NCBI GenBank assembly: GCA_964403535.1
Contig: CAYOFN010000002.1
Coordinates: 1 to 53,549 of the forward strand
Length of the DNA: 53,549 nucleotides
Direction: 5' to 3'
DNA from: Candidatus Woesearchaeota archaeon
Lineage (GTDB): Archaea > Nanobdellota > Nanobdellia > Pacearchaeales > GW2011-AR1
In this document: positions 3,001-48,126 of the stretch, piece by piece
Position numbering within the stretch: the first letter of the stretch is position 1
Layout of the letters: each line of letters starts with the position of its first letter
The notes under the pieces: model-generated
Database searches by the model: none
The model's input: only the letters and a program-made list of their open reading frames with translations
What the model was told of the DNA's origin: nothing
Made by a program: the position numbers and the translations under genes

Positions 3001-6000
3001 AATTGTGGCAGTGTTCCCATCATAAGTGACTGCACCATGATACCATTGATTATTATTTAGAGTAGTACTTCCTGCAAGACTATAATCAGTTCCAGCAGTA
3101 TGTTCTGCACAAAAAGAAAGCTTACTGCTAGCTAAACCAATAATCCAATTACAATCTAATACTCCTCCATCTCCTCCACCCCCACCTTTAGCAGTAACTA
3201 CATCTATATCATCACTAAAACAAGTTGAAAAAGCACAGGAACCATCACAACTAGCTCCTTTTCTTTTAAACCAAAAAGAAATTGTAAAATTAGTTAAATC
3301 CAGATTATCAGAGTCAGGAACATAAACTCTTTTTGTTTCTTTTCCATCAAACTCAAGTCCCTTACCATACTTTCCAGTTATATTTACAATTGGAGAGCTT
3401 AATGTTGCATTATTATCATTACCAGCAATATCAAGGGCAAGTGTAGCACTTTCACCAAGAGAAGATAAATTTTCAAAATTAAACATTAAAACTAAATCAT
3501 TCTCAAAAATAGTATGATTACTTCCATTCCAATTCCAAACTATTTTATTAAGTGGATTGAGTAGAGAATCAGTAATACTTACATTTATCTCTATGCTTGT
3601 ATTTTGTGTTGAAATCTCAGAAACAGGAGTTAGTGAAGTAAATGATACACCTAATCCTTGAAGAATATTAATCTCACTTGAATTCTTTTTTGCTCCATAA
3701 CCTGCAGGATTTCTAGGGGTTATCTCACATATCCATGTATCTCCTGCTGTGAGATTTCCAGAATCTAGAATATATGAAGCACTTTTATTATTCTCAACTT
3801 CCAGGCTTAGAGTGAAGTTTGTAACATTATTCTTAAACCAAGTCATATTCCCACTTAATGAACACCCCCCAGTAATTATAAATGAACAATTAAGATTATC
3901 ATCAGTCTCTGGAGAAATAGGAGAAATTTGAGGTGTTGTAGTTACAGGAACTCCACAAACATTTACACTTCTTTCTTCAGTTTGATTTAAATTTCCAACA
4001 ATATCCACAGCATAACCTGTAATTGTATGAGTATCTAATTCCAAATTTGTAAAATTATGAGAATACTTATATTCACTTGCATTATACAAACTTTGAATTT
4101 CTGCTGCTGAAAGTGAACGATTGAAAATAAGAATATCATCCAAACTTCCATTAAGCAAATTAGAAGTGGAATATCTACATCCAATAACACAATAAGTTGG
4201 GTCTGGAGAAACATAATCAACATCAGTATCTTTTGTAGCAAGAACATTTCCATTAAGATAGTGATATGCTCCTGTTCCATTAAACATTAAAACAAAATTA
4301 TTCCACTTCTCCCAACTCCATAAAGTTAAATTATTTTGACCAATACTAATGCTTCCATATGAGGTACTTGAATAAGAGTATAGTGCATTTCCACTTCTCC
4401 CAAATCTAATATAATTCCCCTCATTGCAAGCAAGAAAGTAATGAGCTCCTTCATCTGTTGAAATCTCCCTCACCCACAATGAGATTGTGAAATTTGAATT
4501 AGTTAAGTTAAATGGAGAACCAAGCTTAAGATAACTTCCAGATTTTCCATCAAACTCAAAACTTTTTCCATAAACCCCAGACTCATTTAAAGTAGCACCA
4601 CCAAGAGCACTTCCATTATTAGAAGAACTGCTTCTATCCAAAACATCTCCTGAGGAATTTAAATCATCCATTCTCCACCACCCAACTAAAGATTTATCAA
4701 ACTCAACAAATGAATAATGTTGATTTGCATCATCTGTAGATAAATTAACATAAATTGAGGTTGCACTTAGGTTTGAGTTATTTGCAGGAGTAGGCAGAGT
4801 AAAATTAATATCAGGAGCAACTGAATCATCTCCAATTCCACTTCCTGTTAAATTTTCAACTCTGTAATTTTCTCCTTCAATCTTTGCATAAACTCCACTA
4901 TTCCATGTTCCTGCTGAAGCTTCTGCTTCTGTAAATCTTATTATATTTGTACAGGTTTTATTTACATTATTTATCAAAAGTGCATCAGGACAAATGTAAA
5001 CTCCTTCATTAAGTGTATTTGGAACAAATAAAGTATGATTTGTAGCAATTCCAGTAACTTCAGATACATTAACAACTGTTTTAGTGTCTGTAGCTCTTAT
5101 TACTAATCTTGATAAATTAACACTCCCCTCTGCAAATAATCCATATACTTTTAATCTTTTTCCATAAACATCACTTGTAAAATTAATAAACTGACTTTCT
5201 GTATAATTCCAATTATTTACAAGAGTAAGATTAGTAGAACCATTTACAGAATAATTTCCTGTTTCTGCATCAACAGGACTAAGGAATGTTGAAGGAGCAA
5301 GATTAACACAAGTTCCATTCAGCCATATAGCCTCAGGATTGAAAACAGCTCCTGTAAAATTACTTGCACATAAAGTATAATTAAGAGTAATTTTTCCTTG
5401 AGGATTTACTGTTGAATTTGCAAGATAAATTCCAGATAAAGTTAAAGTCGGAGCAGTTATATTAATTCTTGCTGTTGTTCCGTTGTAGCCAGTTGCAGTC
5501 GCATTTCCAGTACTAGTAATTGAAGTTGTAGCATTGATGTAGATTGTGCCTGCTGAACCATCAGCACTAGTGCAGCAAGTTGTTCCCCAGTTTTCCTCTC
5601 CCGCAATATTTTCAATAATTGCACCAGTTAAGTCCAATGTGTTTGCATGAAGAGCAATCCGTCCACCACCTCCACCCGCAGCACTGGCTCTATCCCCATC
5701 ACCACCATTCGCTGAAACATAACTTGAGATAGTTAAATTATCAGCAACAATTAGTATGCTACCACCTGCGCTTCCGCTTCTGCTTGCATCTTCGTAAGAA
5801 CTTGCTGTTACATTGCCAAGTAAAACCACCTTTCCAGTAGCATTAATGAAAATAGCCCCCCCTCCAGTCACCCCCACACTGTAATAATTCTCACCGCCAC
5901 TCCCCAAACTTGTTGGCCATGCTTCAGAACCATAAGCAGGGTCACTACTCCCTCCACCTTTTCCACCATGGCTTGCACCAATAGCATTGCTGCTTGAACC

Positions 6001-9000
6001 GCCCGGACCCACAGTTGGTTCAAACCCTAGATGGTCTGCACTCAAAACAGAGTAAGAATCAACATATAAGTCAACTACATTTAAGACTACTCCAGTACCA
6101 TCTCCCTGGAAAGTCAAATTAGGCTGGAAATCCAGTGTTGCACCATTTGTAACATTAATTGTGTGAAATGTATGACCCCTCCCTGTCAATGCCATACTCT
6201 CTTTTATTGTGAGGTTTACATTAGCACCTTCAACTAAAGAAAGGGTTCCATGGTGGCCAGGCAGTGCAGTGCCTGATCCAGCATCTATCCCTCCAGAAAC
6301 ATCTATATCTCCTGCGAAAGTACTTGACAAATATTCAAGAGAGACTCTTCCCCCAGAGCCTCCACCACCCCCATTTGTACCTATGAAATTCCCTCCGTCT
6401 GCAAAAATGCTACCCTCTCCAGTAAGATTAGAAGAAATTATCCAGATACTTCCCCCCGAGCCTCCCCCTCTATCAACATTTTGCCCAGCAGAAGAGAGAT
6501 TTCCATTGACCACAATGTTCCCAGTTGCATTTATAAAAATAATTCCTCCCCCTGCACCTCCACCAATCCCACTATATATCCCGCCTCCACTACCAAAATC
6601 AGTGGGATGGGCAGCAGAACCATACACCTTATCCCAATCATACACTCCTGCTCCAAGACTTCCATAGCATCCTCCCCGACTATAAGTAGATGAGCCTCCA
6701 GGGCCAAGAGTCATCAACCACCCCAACCCATCTGTATAAATCTTCCCGCCAGATTGCACATCAACACTCTCAGCAGTTATGCTTATGTTTCCAGCAGTTA
6801 AATTTCCTCCAGATTGAATTGTTAGATTTCCAGAAAGATTTAAAACAAACCCGCATCCATGATTTGTTCCTAGGCAGTTTGTTTCTGTGTTTTGCAATGC
6901 CCCCCCGTTTTTTATTATCATATTATTCGCAGAAAAAACATATCCATCTGTAATCAGATGTTCTGATGTGATATTGCAGGTTGTTTGCTCATCTCCTTCA
7001 TCACATCCTGTCTCAATTAACAAACTGTTTTCAACAAAAGTTTCTTTATATCCTCCTTTTGTGCAACTTATATTATAAGAATAATTCACATTAGGGATAA
7101 TTGATTTTTCAGATTCCCATAATTTAGTTAAAAAATTCCAGGACATATCATATGATGTTGAGTCATTAAAATTAATAGTGCAAAATGCATTTTGAAAAAC
7201 ATCAACATACCCATTTTTAGAAACAACTGCAAAATCTAAAATCCCATCACCATTAAAATCCAGAGAATCAATCGCAGGCTGTTTTCCTGCAGTTGTTCCT
7301 ATGTCTCCAAGATTAAGAGGATATCTTAGAATAAGACCGCCAGTATAATTGAATATAAAAACCTCATCATTTGCACCTCCTGCAATAATTTCATCTATTC
7401 CATCTGCATCAAAGTCTGCAGTATAAATAGAATATATTGCAATTGCAGTACCTGTTCCATCAATATCATAAGTCCAGTTGTGCGCTGTTAGTTTTTCAGC
7501 ATCTGTTAAATCATATAAATCAAGCATATCTACCTCTCCCCAATTATAAGCACCAGTGGTTCCATAAATCAACTTCTTATCACCATTTGGATATTGATAT
7601 TCCATAATCTCATTTCCCTGAGCATCTGAAAATCCTCCTCTCCATAATCTAGTTCCATTATAAGAGAAGATTTTTATTCCAGTAGCACCCCTACCATAAC
7701 CTGTGATAACTATCTCTTTTCCAGCACTTGTAGAATTATACTCGCCTGCATGAATTGCCATGGGGACATAGTTAGAGCCATTAGACAGTTGAGCCCCACT
7801 ACTTCCGTTATATACAAAATGATAATTCCTTGTAATAATAATCGGGTCATCATAACCATCTCCATCCAAATCAATTGCATAAATCTCGTGCCCGTAAGAG
7901 CCTGTTGCATCTCCTGTATTTGCACTCCATTTTAAACTCCATGAAGTCCCATCACTTGTATTAAAAGCATATACCCATGGAGGAGAAGCTAGTTTAGAAG
8001 CAACAATATCATTCTCAAACCCATTTCCATCTAAATCAACAATATCAATAGAGCCAACATCTCCTCCAAGAGTATAACTCCAAACCTGGCTTCCTGTTTC
8101 ATCAAAAACCCTGACATAATCTCCTGTTTCTGCAGAAACAATGTCATTCTCAAATCCATCCCCATCCAGGTCCCCTACTTCAATCTGATAAATACTCCAG
8201 CTTGCCTCATCCCCTGGCCAGCTTCCAGAAGTTATTTCTGAACCATTGGGATAAAACGCCCTTAACCCTGCATTTGCCTGAGCTACTCCCACAACAATGC
8301 AGTTCTTTTTGCCAGAATTCAAACAATCAAAAGAAGCAAGCGAATAAGCACCATTGCTGGAGTCTATATCCAGACTATCCCATACTGTTTGCCCTAATCC
8401 AGCAAGTTCAAGATTATCTTTTGTAAAATTTGCTTTAAAAGTTATTGTGGGTCCATCAATATCCTGTGATAAGACAATAGAAGCATCATCATATAATGAA
8501 ACTACAACATTATCACTTAAACTTGCATTCTGATATGTTCCTGTTGAATCAAAGCATGAAACATTATAAGAATAATTGCCCACAGGTATACAAGAGTGTC
8601 CTGTTTTATATCCACAATCACCATAAAACTCATACTGGTTTGTTGTATCATTAAATAACATTTCTCCAAGAGGAAGCCAAAATCCAGTCTTATTATTAGA
8701 AATATTACATTTATATGAAGAGCCATTTAAACTGCTCCCTGTAAAATTTGTGAAATTCGCATAAAATCTTGTGAGATTTGTATATACTATTGAGGCATCA
8801 GAATCATCCCAGATTGTTAAATTAGAATTAGATGTATTCATACTAGGGTCAACAATATAATCATACTCAACATCTTCAATTGATTTTAAGTCAAATGTAG
8901 GGTAACTCTCATTATCTCCTAAATTACTAAGATAAATCTTATACCAATTCTCTTGATTTATATTCTCAAATCTTGCAATCTCCTCATTATCTCCTTCTCT

Positions 9001-20745: not shown

Positions 20746-21465
20746 TTACTTTTCTTTTAAAGCTTCTAGTGCTTCTTTCTCAAGAAAATGCATTTCACTA
20801 GGGATAATCATGCAAAAAGGCATTTTTATCTTCTTTTTCTTTAGTTTTTCAAGAGTATCATAATAAATCTTGCTGTCTACTCCAATTTGCGAACAAATTA
20901 TTATCTTTCCAAGGTTCATATCTCTCTTTTTACAAACCTGTTCAAATTGTTCAAGAGCATTTTCACTTGATAACCCAATATCCACAAGCAAAAGAGTATG
21001 TGCCTTAATCTTAAGATTCTCTTTAATTATCTCACAAAAACTATCAGGAGCATACTTTTCTTTCCATGCAGGCATGCTTGCTGTTTTTCCAAATTTATAA
21101 AGTTGCAATCCAGTTTCAGCAATTGCAGTTAAAATACTTTCTGAATGGATAATCTTATATGGAATATTTTTTTTCTTTGCTCTAAGAACAAGAGAAATAT
21201 GGGTAGTTGCACTAAGAGGGTTACCATAAACTAACAAAGCAATATCCTGCTTTTTTGCAGAATCAATAAACTCTTCATTTTCTACTTTTTCTCTTCCAAG
21301 TTCTTTAATTTTCTTTTCAATCACTTTTTCAATTTCCCCCATAGAATATGGAAAATCAACAGTATAATTTTCAAGATAAACGAGGTTGCATTTTTTAACT
21401 GCTTCCAGAGCTTTGACTGAAATTGATTTCAAGTTCAATCCCAAGCCGATTAAGTAAAATACCAT
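20746..21465 (-). CDS. dph5: Diphthine synthase (Dph5, tetrapyrrole-methylase fold)
   Basis: MVFYLIGLGLNLKSISVKALEAVKKCNLVYLENYT... is the typical Dph5 N-terminus. Internal ATG 21465 was chosen because the longer track ORF overlaps the upstream gene. Confidence 0.85.
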   Translation of the reverse strand: MVFYLIGLGLNLKSISVKALEAVKKCNLVYLENYTVDFPYSMGEIEKVIEKKIKELGREKVENEEFIDSAKKQDIALLVYGNPLSATTHISLVLRAKKKNIPYKIIHSESILTAIAETGLQLYKFGKTASMPAWKEKYAPDSFCEIIKENLKIKAHTLLLVDIGLSSENALEQFEQVCKKRDMNLGKIIICSQIGVDSKIYYDTLEKLKKKKIKMPFCMIIPSEMHFLEKEALEALKEK

Positions 21466-21466
21466 G

Positions 21467-21733
21467 TTATTTTTTCTTCCCAACCCATTTCTTATCATAA
21501 CTCTTCCATAAAGCCATAAGGCAGAGAATATCAATAAAGAAAAGAGTAAGAGTTATAGGAAGACTGACAAATAAGAAACAAACTAACAAGATGTTTACAA
21601 CTAAACTAACAATCACTAAGATAATAAACCACTTTCTTCCTGCAACAAGCTCATCTTTTGCAAGCCAAGCCAGGAGATAACCGACTGGAAAAGCAAGTAC
21701 AAGTATGAACACATAAAGCAAGTTTAATATCAT
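21467..21733 (-). CDS. Small integral membrane protein
   Basis: 88 aa with about three hydrophobic helices. Its stop abuts the dph5 start. Confidence 0.5.
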   Translation of the reverse strand: MILNLLYVFILVLAFPVGYLLAWLAKDELVAGRKWFIILVIVSLVVNILLVCFLFVSLPITLTLFFIDILCLMALWKSYDKKWVGKKK

Positions 21734-32610: not shown

Positions 32611-32741
32611 TCCATATCTGCAAAGCAGATATAATATTAATTAATTGTCTATTTTTAAGGTTTTGCGTTATTTTATGTTTCCTCATTTGATTTAATATAT
32701 AGATAAGTTAATCTTTTATAGGGGTACTTCTTTATTAAAAA

Positions 32742-33407
32742 ATGAAAGTAGCTGTGCTTTTTTCAGGAGGCAAAGATTCATGTTTTGCAGCTTTTTTAGC
32801 CAAAAAATATGGGCATGACATAGAATGCTTAATTAGCATTATCTCAAAAAACAAAGAAAGTTATATGTTTCACACTCCTTCTATTCTTAATGTTAAAAAA
32901 CAAGCAGAAATCATGGGTTTGCCACTGATACTCCAACAAACAGAAGGAAGGAAAGAATTAGAATTAAATGATTTAGAAAAAGCAATTAAAACCGCCATAA
33001 CTAAGTATAAAATCCAAGGCATTGTAACAGGAGCAATAGAATCAGTTTATCAGGCATCTAGAGTTCAGAAGATTTGTGATAAATTGAAGTTAGAGTGTTT
33101 TAATCCTCTCTGGCAAAAAGATTCAATAGAACTGCTGAATGATTTAATCAAAAATAAATTCAAGGTTATTATCACAGGAGTTTTTGCATATCCTCTTGAC
33201 AAAACCTGGTTAGAAAGAGAAATTAATGAAAGGTTTATTGAAGATGTAAAGAAATTAAGAGAAAAATACAAAGTTCATCCAGCAGGAGAAGGTGGAGAAT
33301 TTGAAACTTTTGTTCTTGACTGCCCCTTATTTAAAAATTCTTTAAAAATAAAAGATCGGAAGATATACGGAACAAAAAACTCCTGGGCAATGGACTTAGA
33401 GATATGA
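32742..33407 (+). CDS. dph6: Diphthine-ammonia ligase (Dph6 / MJ0570-family PP-loop ATPase)
   Basis: 221 aa with SGGKDS PP-loop, MFHTP, YQASRVQKICDKL..ECFNPLW and HPAGEGGEFETFVLDCPLF. Confidence 0.85.
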   Translation: MKVAVLFSGGKDSCFAAFLAKKYGHDIECLISIISKNKESYMFHTPSILNVKKQAEIMGLPLILQQTEGRKELELNDLEKAIKTAITKYKIQGIVTGAIESVYQASRVQKICDKLKLECFNPLWQKDSIELLNDLIKNKFKVIITGVFAYPLDKTWLEREINERFIEDVKKLREKYKVHPAGEGGEFETFVLDCPLFKNSLKIKDRKIYGTKNSWAMDLEI

Positions 33408-33937
33408 AAGAATCATTAATAATTAATATTTGTAGAGAGAAACTGCATTATCTTGAATTTGTAAAGCCCATTGAAGATATTCTAAAAAGCAAAAATATTA
33501 AATTCAAGACATTAAATTATAAAGAAATAAAAGAAACTCCAGATTATGAAAAAATAATTATTTGTGGGACTTCACTAAAAGATAAAGAATACCTTAATGC
33601 AAATTTTTCATGGATTAGAGATACAAATAAGTCTGTACTTGGAATCTGCGCAGGTATGCAGATAATTGGAATTGAATTTAAAGGAAAATTAAAAACTAAA
33701 AAAGAAATAGGGTTTTTCAAAGAAACTTTCAAGGAGGAGTTTTTAGGCTTAAAAGGAGAAAATGAAGTTTATCACCTGCATAATAATTATGTAGAACTTT
33801 CAAATGATTTTAAAATATTCTCTAAAAATACCCTCACCCAGGCTGTTAAACATAAAACAAAAGAGATTTATGGTGTTTTATTTCACCCTGAAGTTAGAAA
33901 TAAGGAGCTTATCTTAAACTTTGTAAAAATCCCTTAA
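33404..33937 (+). CDS. Class I glutamine amidotransferase (GuaA-subunit-A-like)
   Basis: 177 aa. Nucleophile elbow LGICAGMQ and the His-Glu pair in LFHPEV. Its ATG overlaps the dph6 stop (ATGA). Confidence 0.8.
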   Translation: MKESLIINICREKLHYLEFVKPIEDILKSKNIKFKTLNYKEIKETPDYEKIIICGTSLKDKEYLNANFSWIRDTNKSVLGICAGMQIIGIEFKGKLKTKKEIGFFKETFKEEFLGLKGENEVYHLHNNYVELSNDFKIFSKNTLTQAVKHKTKEIYGVLFHPEVRNKELILNFVKIP

Positions 33938-33953
33938 TCTCTCTTAAAACTTC

Positions 33954-34193
33954 TTACTTTTTTCTATCTTTCTTTAGTATCTTCTCAGCTCGTTTAATCA
34001 TCTCTTTTTTCAAACCTAGAAACACCCCACCTTCCTTGCCCCCAACATAACTATTCTCTCCTGGATTAATTATCTCATTTAATTCTTCTAATTCTACATC
34101 AATATGAGTAACACTTGCACCACTTTTTCCTTTTTCATGCAAGTAAACTTTTGCATTTCCCAGTAATTTTTTTCCTTCACCTGAACCACTCAT
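33954..34193 (-). CDS. Hypothetical small protein
   Basis: 79-aa ORF rich in Gly and Lys. No motif recognised. Confidence 0.4.
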   Translation of the reverse strand: MSGSGEGKKLLGNAKVYLHEKGKSGASVTHIDVELEELNEIINPGENSYVGGKEGGVFLGLKKEMIKRAEKILKKDRKK

Positions 34194-45954: not shown

Positions 45955-48126
45955 TCACTCGTTATCAGCCAAACCTTTTCTTTTTCTTATTTGAGGAACA
46001 ACTTTATTTTGAATTTCAGTTGGCATTCTTTCAAATAACTGGTCAACAAGAGCAAATGTTCCTCTTCCTTCTGTAGACCCTCTTAAATCTCCAGCCATTC
46101 CAATCATCTCAGCTACTGGCATTTTCACCCTCATAGAAATATGTTCAACTTCCTGTTCTACATTTAACATCTGTCCTCTTTTGCTCTGCACTAATTTAGT
46201 CATTTCTCCCATATACTTTAGAGGAGCTTCTATCTGGAGCACTTGTATTGGTTCAAAGAGAATAGTTTTTCCATCATTCATTGCACCTCTTAGAGAATCT
46301 CTCACAGCAGGGTAAACCTGAGCAGGGCCCCTATGAATAGCATCTTCGTGAAGTTTAATATCAACAAGCATTACTTTCATTTTAAGACAAGGTTCTCTTG
46401 CAATTGGTCCTGCATCAACAACCTGTTCAAAAGCATCAAGAATCATTTCAATAACCTCTCCAATATGAACCTCTCCTTTTATCTTGTCTTCAAAAACACA
46501 ACCTTTGTAAACTTCTCTATATTGTCTTGCTTCTTCATTGCTTATTCCCATTTCTGATAATTTTTTCCATAATCCCTCATCTTTTTTCTTTATACGTCCC
46601 TCTTTAATCTCTCCTGCTTTTATTGCATTATACACCTCATCTTCAAGAGGCGCAACTTTAATAAAAAATACATTATGCTTATTCGGACTTTTTCCATCAA
46701 ACTCTCTTGATTCTTTTTGCACAGCCTCTCTATAAACCACTATTGGAGAAGAAGTTAGAATATCCACTCCTTTTTCAGTTCTTATCCTATTAGCAATAAC
46801 CTCTAAATGCAGTTCTCCCATACCTGATAAAAGATGCTGTCCTGTCTCTTCATTAATCTCCAGTTTTACAGTAGGGTCTTCTTTTTGTACAGTTTTAAGC
46901 ACATCAATTAATTTTGGCAAGTCTGCAGGATTTTTAGATCCAATGCTGATAGTAACAACTGGCTCAAAAATATGCTTTATTGATTCAAAAGGTTCAATGT
47001 CTATGCTCGATAGAGTCTCTCCAGCAGTAACTCCTTTTAATCCAGCAATTCCCACAATATTTCCAGCAGGAACATTGTCAACAATAATTCTTTGAGGGCC
47101 TTTGTAAATATTTATTTGCTGAACTTTTACAGGACGATTTGCAGTCATTATTTTTAAATCCTGTCCCTTGCTAAGTGTTCCAGAAAAAAGTCTTCCTCCA
47201 GCTATCTCTCCTGCCTGTGGGTCTACCACTATCTTAGTGATTACAAAAATAGTTGGTCCTTTTGGATCAGCACTAAGCAATGATTTCCCAGTATCACTTT
47301 CTAAATCACCAGACCAGACTCTGGGAATTCTATATCCTTGTGCTTTTATTGGATTAGGAATATGTTTAACAGACATATTTAAAATAGCCTGATGTAAAGG
47401 AGCTTTTTTAGCTAATTCATTTAACTTATCTTGTTTATAAGCATCTACAACATCACTAAACTTAATTCCCAGCTTTTTCATAGTGTTAAAATTTATTGCC
47501 CATCTGTCTTTTGCACTTCCAAAAGCAACACTCCCATTCTGTACAGAAACAAGCCACTTTCCTTTAAACTCATCTGGAACAATAGAATCAATATAATTAT
47601 TAACTGAATTTATAACTTTTATAAAACGTTGCTGCATCTCGTCACCATTTAATTTTAATTCTTTAATAAGCCTGTCAACTTTATTAATAAACAAAACTGG
47701 TTTAACCCTCTCTCTCAAAGCCTGTTTTAATACAGTTTCTGTTTGAGGCATCATCCCTTCTGCAGCACAAACCACTACTACTGCTCCATCAGTTGCCCTC
47801 ATCGCTCTTGTAACCTCTCCTGAAAAATCAATATGTCCAGGAGTATCAATTAAATTAATAAGATAGTCCTCTCCATCAACATTATGAATCATATTAACAT
47901 TAGCAGAATCAATAGTAATCCCTCTTGCTTTTTCATCTTCATGAAAATCCATAACAAGCAGTTTTCCTGCAAGTTCACTTGAAATCATCCCTGCTCCAGC
48001 AAGCAAAGAGTCAGTCATTGTTGTTTTCCCATGGTCTATATGAGCAACTATCCCAATGTTCCTGATTTTTTCAGGATTTTTCATTAATTCTACAATCTTT
48101 TTTGTTTTTTCTTCTTCAGATACCAT
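45955..48126 (-). CDS. fusA: Translation elongation factor aEF-2
   Basis: 723 aa with AHIDHGKTT, DTPGH and NKVD. The diphthamide-site loop is HEDAIHRGPAQ. Confidence 0.97.
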   Translation of the reverse strand: MVSEEEKTKKIVELMKNPEKIRNIGIVAHIDHGKTTMTDSLLAGAGMISSELAGKLLVMDFHEDEKARGITIDSANVNMIHNVDGEDYLINLIDTPGHIDFSGEVTRAMRATDGAVVVVCAAEGMMPQTETVLKQALRERVKPVLFINKVDRLIKELKLNGDEMQQRFIKVINSVNNYIDSIVPDEFKGKWLVSVQNGSVAFGSAKDRWAINFNTMKKLGIKFSDVVDAYKQDKLNELAKKAPLHQAILNMSVKHIPNPIKAQGYRIPRVWSGDLESDTGKSLLSADPKGPTIFVITKIVVDPQAGEIAGGRLFSGTLSKGQDLKIMTANRPVKVQQINIYKGPQRIIVDNVPAGNIVGIAGLKGVTAGETLSSIDIEPFESIKHIFEPVVTISIGSKNPADLPKLIDVLKTVQKEDPTVKLEINEETGQHLLSGMGELHLEVIANRIRTEKGVDILTSSPIVVYREAVQKESREFDGKSPNKHNVFFIKVAPLEDEVYNAIKAGEIKEGRIKKKDEGLWKKLSEMGISNEEARQYREVYKGCVFEDKIKGEVHIGEVIEMILDAFEQVVDAGPIAREPCLKMKVMLVDIKLHEDAIHRGPAQVYPAVRDSLRGAMNDGKTILFEPIQVLQIEAPLKYMGEMTKLVQSKRGQMLNVEQEVEHISMRVKMPVAEMIGMAGDLRGSTEGRGTFALVDQLFERMPTEIQNKVVPQIRKRKGLADNE

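Follow-up and report, generated by a model that had tools for sequence, protein, structure and literature searches.

Elongation factor 2 (EF-2) of archaea and eukaryotes carries a conserved modification, diphthamide, whose last step of synthesis is catalogued only as the reaction of an ammonia-dependent ligase (Enzyme Commission (EC) number 6.3.1.14). A stretch of 53,549 nucleotides (nt) from a Candidatus Woesearchaeota archaeon (contig CAYOFN010000002.1 of assembly GCA_964403535.1; the whole stretch is called the window here) bears on the question of where the nitrogen for this step comes from. In the window, the gene for Dph6 (diphthine-ammonia ligase, a PP-loop ATP pyrophosphatase of 221 amino acids (aa); positions 32742-33407, + strand; TIGR03679, PF01902) is followed directly by a gene for a class I glutamine amidotransferase (GATase) of 177 aa (33404-33937, + strand; PF00117). 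The dph6 stop codon and the GATase start codon overlap in the sequence ATGA (33404-33407, + strand), which reads as a site of translational coupling.

An original prediction, made from the sequence alone, proposed that the two proteins form a glutamine-dependent two-subunit diphthamide synthetase or, alternatively, that the GATase is subunit A of GMP synthase (GuaAA) parked next to dph6. The computational checks described here support the former proposal. Based on sequence comparisons and a predicted complex, we consider it quite likely that the dph6-GATase pair encodes a heteromeric, glutamine-hydrolysing diphthamide synthetase.

Dph6 and its conserved amidotransferase neighbour

Both open reading frames (ORFs), their overlap and the motifs that had been named for them (SGGKDS and EGGEFET in Dph6, GICAGMQ and FHPE in the GATase) were found in the sequence as described. 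Dph6 matches TIGR03679 (Dph6_archaeal) with 270.9 bits (cut-off 197.3) over profile positions 1-213 of 218, and PF01902 with 226.9 bits. The PP-loop motif SGGKDS occupies residues 8-13 and the motif GEGGEFET residues 182-189. The closest solved structures are PH1257 (2D13, 193 bits) and PF0828 (3RJZ, 3RK0 and 3RK1). There is one Dph6 match, without a second copy, in the source genome (a 727 kb assembly of 43 contigs, 89.5% complete), whose relatives carry Woesearchaeota, Pacearchaeota or Nanoarchaeota names in public records. Residues Y103, Q104, A149, E183, E186 and E188, proposed in 2012 as facing EF-2 (PMC3541065), do not vary among 59 Dph6 proteins that are partnered or fused. By sequence, the Dph6 of the window is an orthologue of diphthine-ammonia ligase, and we infer that it amidates diphthine.

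The GATase matches PF00117 with 64.7 bits (cut-off 22.8). Its motifs GICAGMQ (Cys82) and FHPE (His161 and Glu163) provide a complete catalytic triad that is invariant across 59 family members, and Gly80, Gly84 and Gln86 of the glutaminase site vary little or not at all (in 59 diverse members, fusions included). The family also has the motifs EFVxP, IICGTSLKD, YHLHN and FHPEVR. It comprises at least 2744 proteins (90% clustering, E <= 1e-3) and 325 clusters at 50% clustering (E <= 1e-10), and relatives of the GATase are encoded in at least 563 species genomes. Databases label its members hypothetical, 'GMP synthase-like' or 'gamma-glutamyl-GABA hydrolase family'.

We surveyed the best 80 of at least 563 species loci; contig ends truncate three of these 80, leaving 77 that could be assessed. 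The dph6 gene is immediately upstream on the same strand in 58 of the best 80 loci, and is upstream of an insert of 250-2500 bp in 15 others. In total, 73 of the 77 assessable loci have dph6 upstream in the same orientation. Of 56 adjacent pairs from other species, 47 have the identical 4-nt overlap of stop and start codons, and thus the arrangement is not due to chance. Even in the most divergent cluster representatives examined (36% identity), the GATase gene follows a Dph6 gene. The inserts at the 15 interrupted loci are mostly unrelated genes. In five of the 80 loci, however, a DUF3977 (PF13122) ORF of 79-99 aa is located between dph6 and the GATase gene on the same strand (L028:2729-2998, L046:2739-3020, L072:2760-2999, L088:2450-2749 and L096:2744-3007). 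It could encode a third component or be a recurrent insert.

Natural fusions of 392-480 aa were also identified, in which Dph6 forms the N-terminal part and the GATase the C-terminal part, matching the gene order. Several of these are named 'diphthine--ammonia ligase [Methanothrix sp.]' by NCBI. The fused protein matches TIGR03679 with 277.3 bits (cut-off 197.3), and its gene is the sole PF01902 match in a 2.5-Mb Methanothrix genome. Thus, the fused gene is the Dph6 of that organism. Among 61 genomes of the same order (the order and phylum are assigned from the NCBI name of the fused protein P0123 only), 15 have a fused gene, about 40 have split adjacent genes and about six have only a distant Dph6-like match. 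A strong match to the Dph6-linked GATase type was found in 34 of 201 genomes of the phylum, and dph6 is adjacent or fused in all 12 loci taken from those genomes. The GATase tree indicates at least three independent origins of the Dph6-GATase fusion.

On a Methanothrix contig (L143), the fused gene (5001-6317) starts 4 nt past a gene (3501-4997) for a CbiA/CobB-type amidotransferase of 498 aa (PF01656 and GATase_3). An operon of two amidating enzymes is possible at this site, judging from the gene arrangement.

Relationship of the amidotransferase to GMP synthase

The closest known parallel is the archaeal two-subunit GMP synthase, GuaAA plus GuaAB (Methanocaldococcus jannaschii, 2LXN/7D40; Pyrococcus horikoshii, 1WL8/2D7J). 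There, too, the GATase is small, stand-alone and of class I, has a Cys-His-Glu triad and works for a separate PP-loop enzyme, which adenylates its substrate. Among solved and curated sequences, GuaAA is also the nearest relative of the GATase described here. The best curated match is the GuaAA model NF001975, and the best PDB sequence matches are the GuaAA structures 2LXN and 1WL8 (~69 bits). These matches, together with the 'GMP synthase-like' label of some family members, favor the idea that the GATase is a GuaAA that merely lies beside dph6 and serves a GuaAB encoded elsewhere. The score to NF001975 is 64.7 bits, however, one third of the cut-off of 198, and that to TIGR00888 is 54.3 bits (cut-off 172).

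The GATase is the sole PF00117 match in the source genome. A profile search of this 89.5% complete genome gave no match to GMP_synt_C (PF00958), the domain expected of a GuaAB partner. Other potential partners were not identified in it either: there is no match to a chorismate-binding protein (TrpE/PabB) and no credible match to HisF (15.9 bits, below the cut-off). GMP_synt_C is present in two of 61 genomes of the same order (source genome counted), one of which encodes, besides a separate dph6-GATase pair, a fused GuaA of 507 aa that includes a GATase domain. The domain was not found in 15 of 16 sampled genomes that carry the Dph6-linked GATase (source genome counted).

Genomes that do encode a genuine GuaAA or fused GuaA have the Dph6-linked GATase besides. 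Each of five genomes of 1.3-1.8 Mb with close copies of the pair also has a GuaAA or fused-GuaA match. To NF001975, two full-length GuaAA proteins score 273 and 246 bits, a GuaAA cut by a contig end 183 bits, and two N-domains of fused GuaA 193 and 144 bits, versus 57-74 bits for the dph6-linked GATases of these genomes. The 2.5-Mb Methanothrix genome encodes a GuaAA with 254.7 bits and the Dph6-fused GATase with 79.5 bits. Only full-length stand-alone GuaAA copies exceed the NF001975 cut-off in the comparison genomes.

A tree of 88 GATase rows (79 from the family and nine from GuaAA, fused GuaA, TrpG and CarA) has one branch, with SH-aLRT support of 99, that parts the 79 family rows from the nine others. 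Unlike GuaAA, the Dph6-linked GATase thus forms a separate clade, with scores of 57-80 bits versus a cut-off of 198 and with its own motifs. We rejected the GuaAA assignment based on the score below the cut-off, the missing guaAB, the co-resident true GuaAA and the tree. It also leaves the adjacency and fusion with Dph6 unexplained, and we regard it as extremely unlikely. The original prediction had held that a parked GuaAA should cluster with other GuaAA proteins, have a guaAB elsewhere in the genome and show no conserved adjacency to dph6. Instead, the GATase is placed outside GuaAA, TrpG and CarA by profile scores and tree, neither GMP_synt_C nor any other class I GATase was found in the source genome, and the adjacency is conserved, with fusions.

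One genome (G045) encodes a 192-aa GuaAA-like GATase (L019:1444-2019, - strand) that scores 137.6 bits to NF001975, below the cut-off. No GMP_synt_C was found in G045. This GATase is an orphan, distinct from the Dph6-linked GATase of the same genome.

Predicted complex and interface residues

The original prediction had suggested modelling of the complex. With a 59-row alignment as input for each protein, three runs gave ipSAE values of 0.92, 0.91 and 0.92 for Dph6 plus GATase, versus 0.01 for the best of three control pairs. The runs share at least 93% of contacts, with a partner pLDDT of 91 or more. The ipSAE mark that we used is met by 58 of 80 solved complexes and two of 110 mismatched pairs, a calibration that is rough for user alignments. 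In the model, the GATase contributes residues 12-25 (the EFVKP region), 57-59, 102-104, 123-127 (YHLHN) and 163-165, and its interface is the face that bears the triad. Dph6 contributes residues 19-25, 102-113 and 116-127, adjoining Y103/Q104, which earlier work (2012; PMC3541065) assigned to the EF-2 and active-site face.

For a fused protein, AlphaFold2 gave a model with a mean pLDDT of 89.7 and a pTM of 0.87, in which disorder is confined to the linker (residues 230-252). Foldseek searches with this model gave single-domain matches only: the N-domain matches PH1257/PF0828 (TM 0.95), and the C-domain matches GuaAA. The alignment of full-length GMP synthases with the model spans only ~200 columns, and no PDB entry found by Foldseek matches both domains together. 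Thus, the predicted domain arrangement was not copied from a solved two-domain structure.

Independently of the model, we compared the 59 partnered or fused Dph6 proteins with 20 solo Dph6 proteins, taken from relatives without a GATase match in the whole genome or within 1.5 kb. Residue frequencies differ by at least 0.5 at eight of the 221 Dph6 positions (25, 100, 102, 113, 118, 120, 125 and 216). Of these eight, six belong to the 25 residues of the predicted interface (Fisher p = 2.8e-5). An aromatic residue occupies position 120 in 58 of 59 partnered proteins, and 17 of 20 solo proteins have I, L, V or S there; position 118 is mostly E or W in the former and K in 13 of the 20 latter. The solo proteins are scattered among the partnered ones on the Dph6 tree, where supported branches force at least five changes, and thus the interface pattern is not one inherited difference. 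A solo Dph6 (L138) from a genome that is 88% complete and in which no GATase was found (G017) retains W118 and F120, which suggests recent loss of the GATase or a partner gene that was not assembled.

Proposed enzyme, genomic setting and alternatives

In the proposed reaction, Dph6 would use ATP to adenylate the diphthine carboxylate on His597 of archaeal EF-2 (aEF-2). The GATase would dock with its active-site face on Dph6, beside the Y103/Q104 helix and the conserved loop 119-CFNPLW-124. It would then split glutamine via Cys82, His161 and Glu163 and hand the nascent ammonia to the adenylated intermediate, so that the end products would be diphthamide, AMP, pyrophosphate and glutamate. We infer the glutaminase activity, the transfer of ammonia and the role of diphthine-EF-2 as acceptor. 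As many archaea have retained the pair or fused it, these archaea probably take the last diphthamide nitrogen from glutamine rather than from free ammonia. In broader terms, it is fairly likely that many archaea, including much of the DPANN Woese-, Pace- and Nanoarchaeota and nearly all sampled genomes of the Methanothrix order, use a Dph6-GATase heteromer or a single fused protein as an unrecognised glutamine-hydrolysing diphthamide enzyme. This would be a new activity of EC 6.3.5 type on a protein substrate, with a dedicated GATase family, and the repeated losses of the partner would point to lineages that depend on free ammonia.

The two genes look like an operon. A TATA-like element, CTTTTATAGGGG (32713-32724, + strand), is located 29 nt upstream of the dph6 ATG and is a putative promoter for dph6 and the GATase gene. 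A T-rich tract 3' of the GATase stop codon (33953-33968, + strand) is a possible archaeal terminator. A scan for sigma-70 promoters and intrinsic terminators, which is unsuited to archaea, gave no sites above shuffled sequences. A 79-aa ORF (33954-34193, - strand) without an NCBIfam match is convergent on the GATase gene.

Other components of the diphthamide pathway are encoded nearby. The gene for diphthine synthase (dph5), which acts in the preceding step, was identified at 20746-21534 (- strand) with 200.9 bits to TIGR00522 (cut-off 114.3). The original prediction had the correct gene, but ended it at 21465 due to a shorter start choice. The protein substrate, aEF-2, also named in the original prediction, is encoded at 45955-48126 (- strand; TIGR00490, 1000.3 bits) and has the diphthamide motif HEDAIHRG at residues 592-599. 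Matches to Dph2 (PF01866) were found outside the window on two contigs (G000:C9:4664-5200 and G000:C3:8420-8599), with profile positions 80-276 in a 214-aa frame and positions 1-59 in a 96-aa frame. From these partial matches, the Dph2 gene of the source genome may be split. A further contig (C8; L021:1498-2211, + strand) encodes a QueC-like PP-loop protein with 143.2 bits to TIGR00364 (cut-off 150.3), the single PF02540 match in the source genome.

Beyond GuaAA, three other explanations for the pairing deserve consideration. The GATase might be a shared glutaminase, or a gamma-glutamyl hydrolase of the peptidase C26 type, that serves another acceptor and is linked to dph6 through co-expression only. 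The GATase does have weak Peptidase_C26 matches, and several of our observations fit this explanation and weigh against a dedicated diphthamide synthetase. The QueC-like protein, an ammonia-using PP-loop enzyme, could draw on the same glutaminase. In four of the 77 assessable loci, the GATase gene is unlinked from dph6, which is absent from the 2.5 kb or more of sequence upstream. Many genomes with Dph6 lack the GATase: in the order of the source genome, Dph6 was found in 56 of 61 genomes and the GATase in only 16. The case for a dedicated synthetase is further limited by the small outgroup of the GATase tree (nine rows, without HisH, PurQ, PdxT and PyrG) and by an independent-pairs test of the solo Dph6 pattern, in which the five pairs (~3.7 concordant, none opposite) are too few for significance. 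Co-expression alone, however, does not account for repeated independent fusions to Dph6 in the gene order, for a complex model that passes its controls and sets the glutaminase active-site face on Dph6, or for Dph6 interface residues that shift where the GATase is absent. Nor does it account for adjacency that spans two distant archaeal lineages and is retained at 36% identity. We consider a shared glutaminase unlikely. Because many relatives have Dph6 without the GATase, the GATase is probably an accessory that enables use of glutamine and has been repeatedly lost, with Dph6 alone using free ammonia.

A different substrate is also conceivable, as DUF71 proteins are not monofunctional (PMC3541065). 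The pair could be a glutamine-dependent amidotransferase for a corrinoid or other carboxylate, as proposed for DUF71-B12, and the start of the Methanothrix fused gene just past a CbiA/CobB-type gene is in line with this. On the other hand, the partnered and fused proteins (270.9 and 277.3 bits) clear the Dph6 cut-off of 197.3 and are far below the paralog models, and the residues proposed to face EF-2 are invariant. The protein is the sole PF01902/Dph6 match in both the source and the Methanothrix genomes; thus, both organisms need it for diphthamide. The source genome also encodes Dph5, gives Dph2 matches and has the target histidine in its aEF-2, and a substrate other than diphthine seems quite unlikely. 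Finally, the GATase could be a catalytically silent structural partner that stabilises Dph6 or replaces its homodimerisation, without delivery of ammonia. Conservation of the Dph6 interface surface (residues 116-127) in solo Dph6 too is compatible with such a role. The glutaminase site, however, is invariant or nearly so across 59 members including fusions, which argues for retained catalysis and makes a silent partner very unlikely. Overall, the fusions, the sole copy of Dph6 and the invariant triad disfavor these three explanations, and we retain the glutamine-hydrolysing diphthamide synthetase.

The proposed synthetase differs from the systems it resembles. Unlike GMP synthase, its synthetase subunit is Dph6 (MJ0570/DUF71) rather than GuaAB, and the proposed acceptor is a protein side chain rather than xanthosine monophosphate. 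Dph6 as described (EC 6.3.1.14; yeast Dph6; PF0828/PH1257, structures 3RK1/2D13), of which the synthetase subunit in the window is an orthologue, uses free ammonium and has no glutaminase subunit, whereas here a dedicated GATase is coupled or fused to it and partnered proteins differ at interface positions (e.g., F120 and E/W118). A 2012 study of DUF71 considered fusions of AsnB (GAT-II plus Asn synthetase) with DUF71, and of eukaryotic Dph6 with RidA, as ammonia sources, and a class I GATase partner of Dph6 is unmentioned there (PMC3541065). The pair described here is like those proposals in that ammonia would reach Dph6 from an attached releasing module, but the modules considered in 2012 were RidA domains or a GATase of class II (Ntn) with an additional PP-loop domain. 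We found no description of a class I GATase partner of Dph6 in the searched literature, with most subscription journals outside its scope. What is new, then, is a candidate glutaminase subunit, from a known superfamily and undescribed in that literature, for the known enzyme Dph6.

If this reading is correct, the diphthamide enzyme would have a glutamine-hydrolysing form, defined by its dedicated glutaminase subunit and among the few class I amidotransferases that act on a protein side chain. The natural Methanothrix fusions offer a ready single-chain protein for biochemical and structural work. The 2012 question of the physiological nitrogen source (PMC3541065) would be answered for these lineages. 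The annotation of the GATase family would be corrected in at least 563 species genomes and, for reduced DPANN genomes, a false hint of GMP synthesis would be removed.

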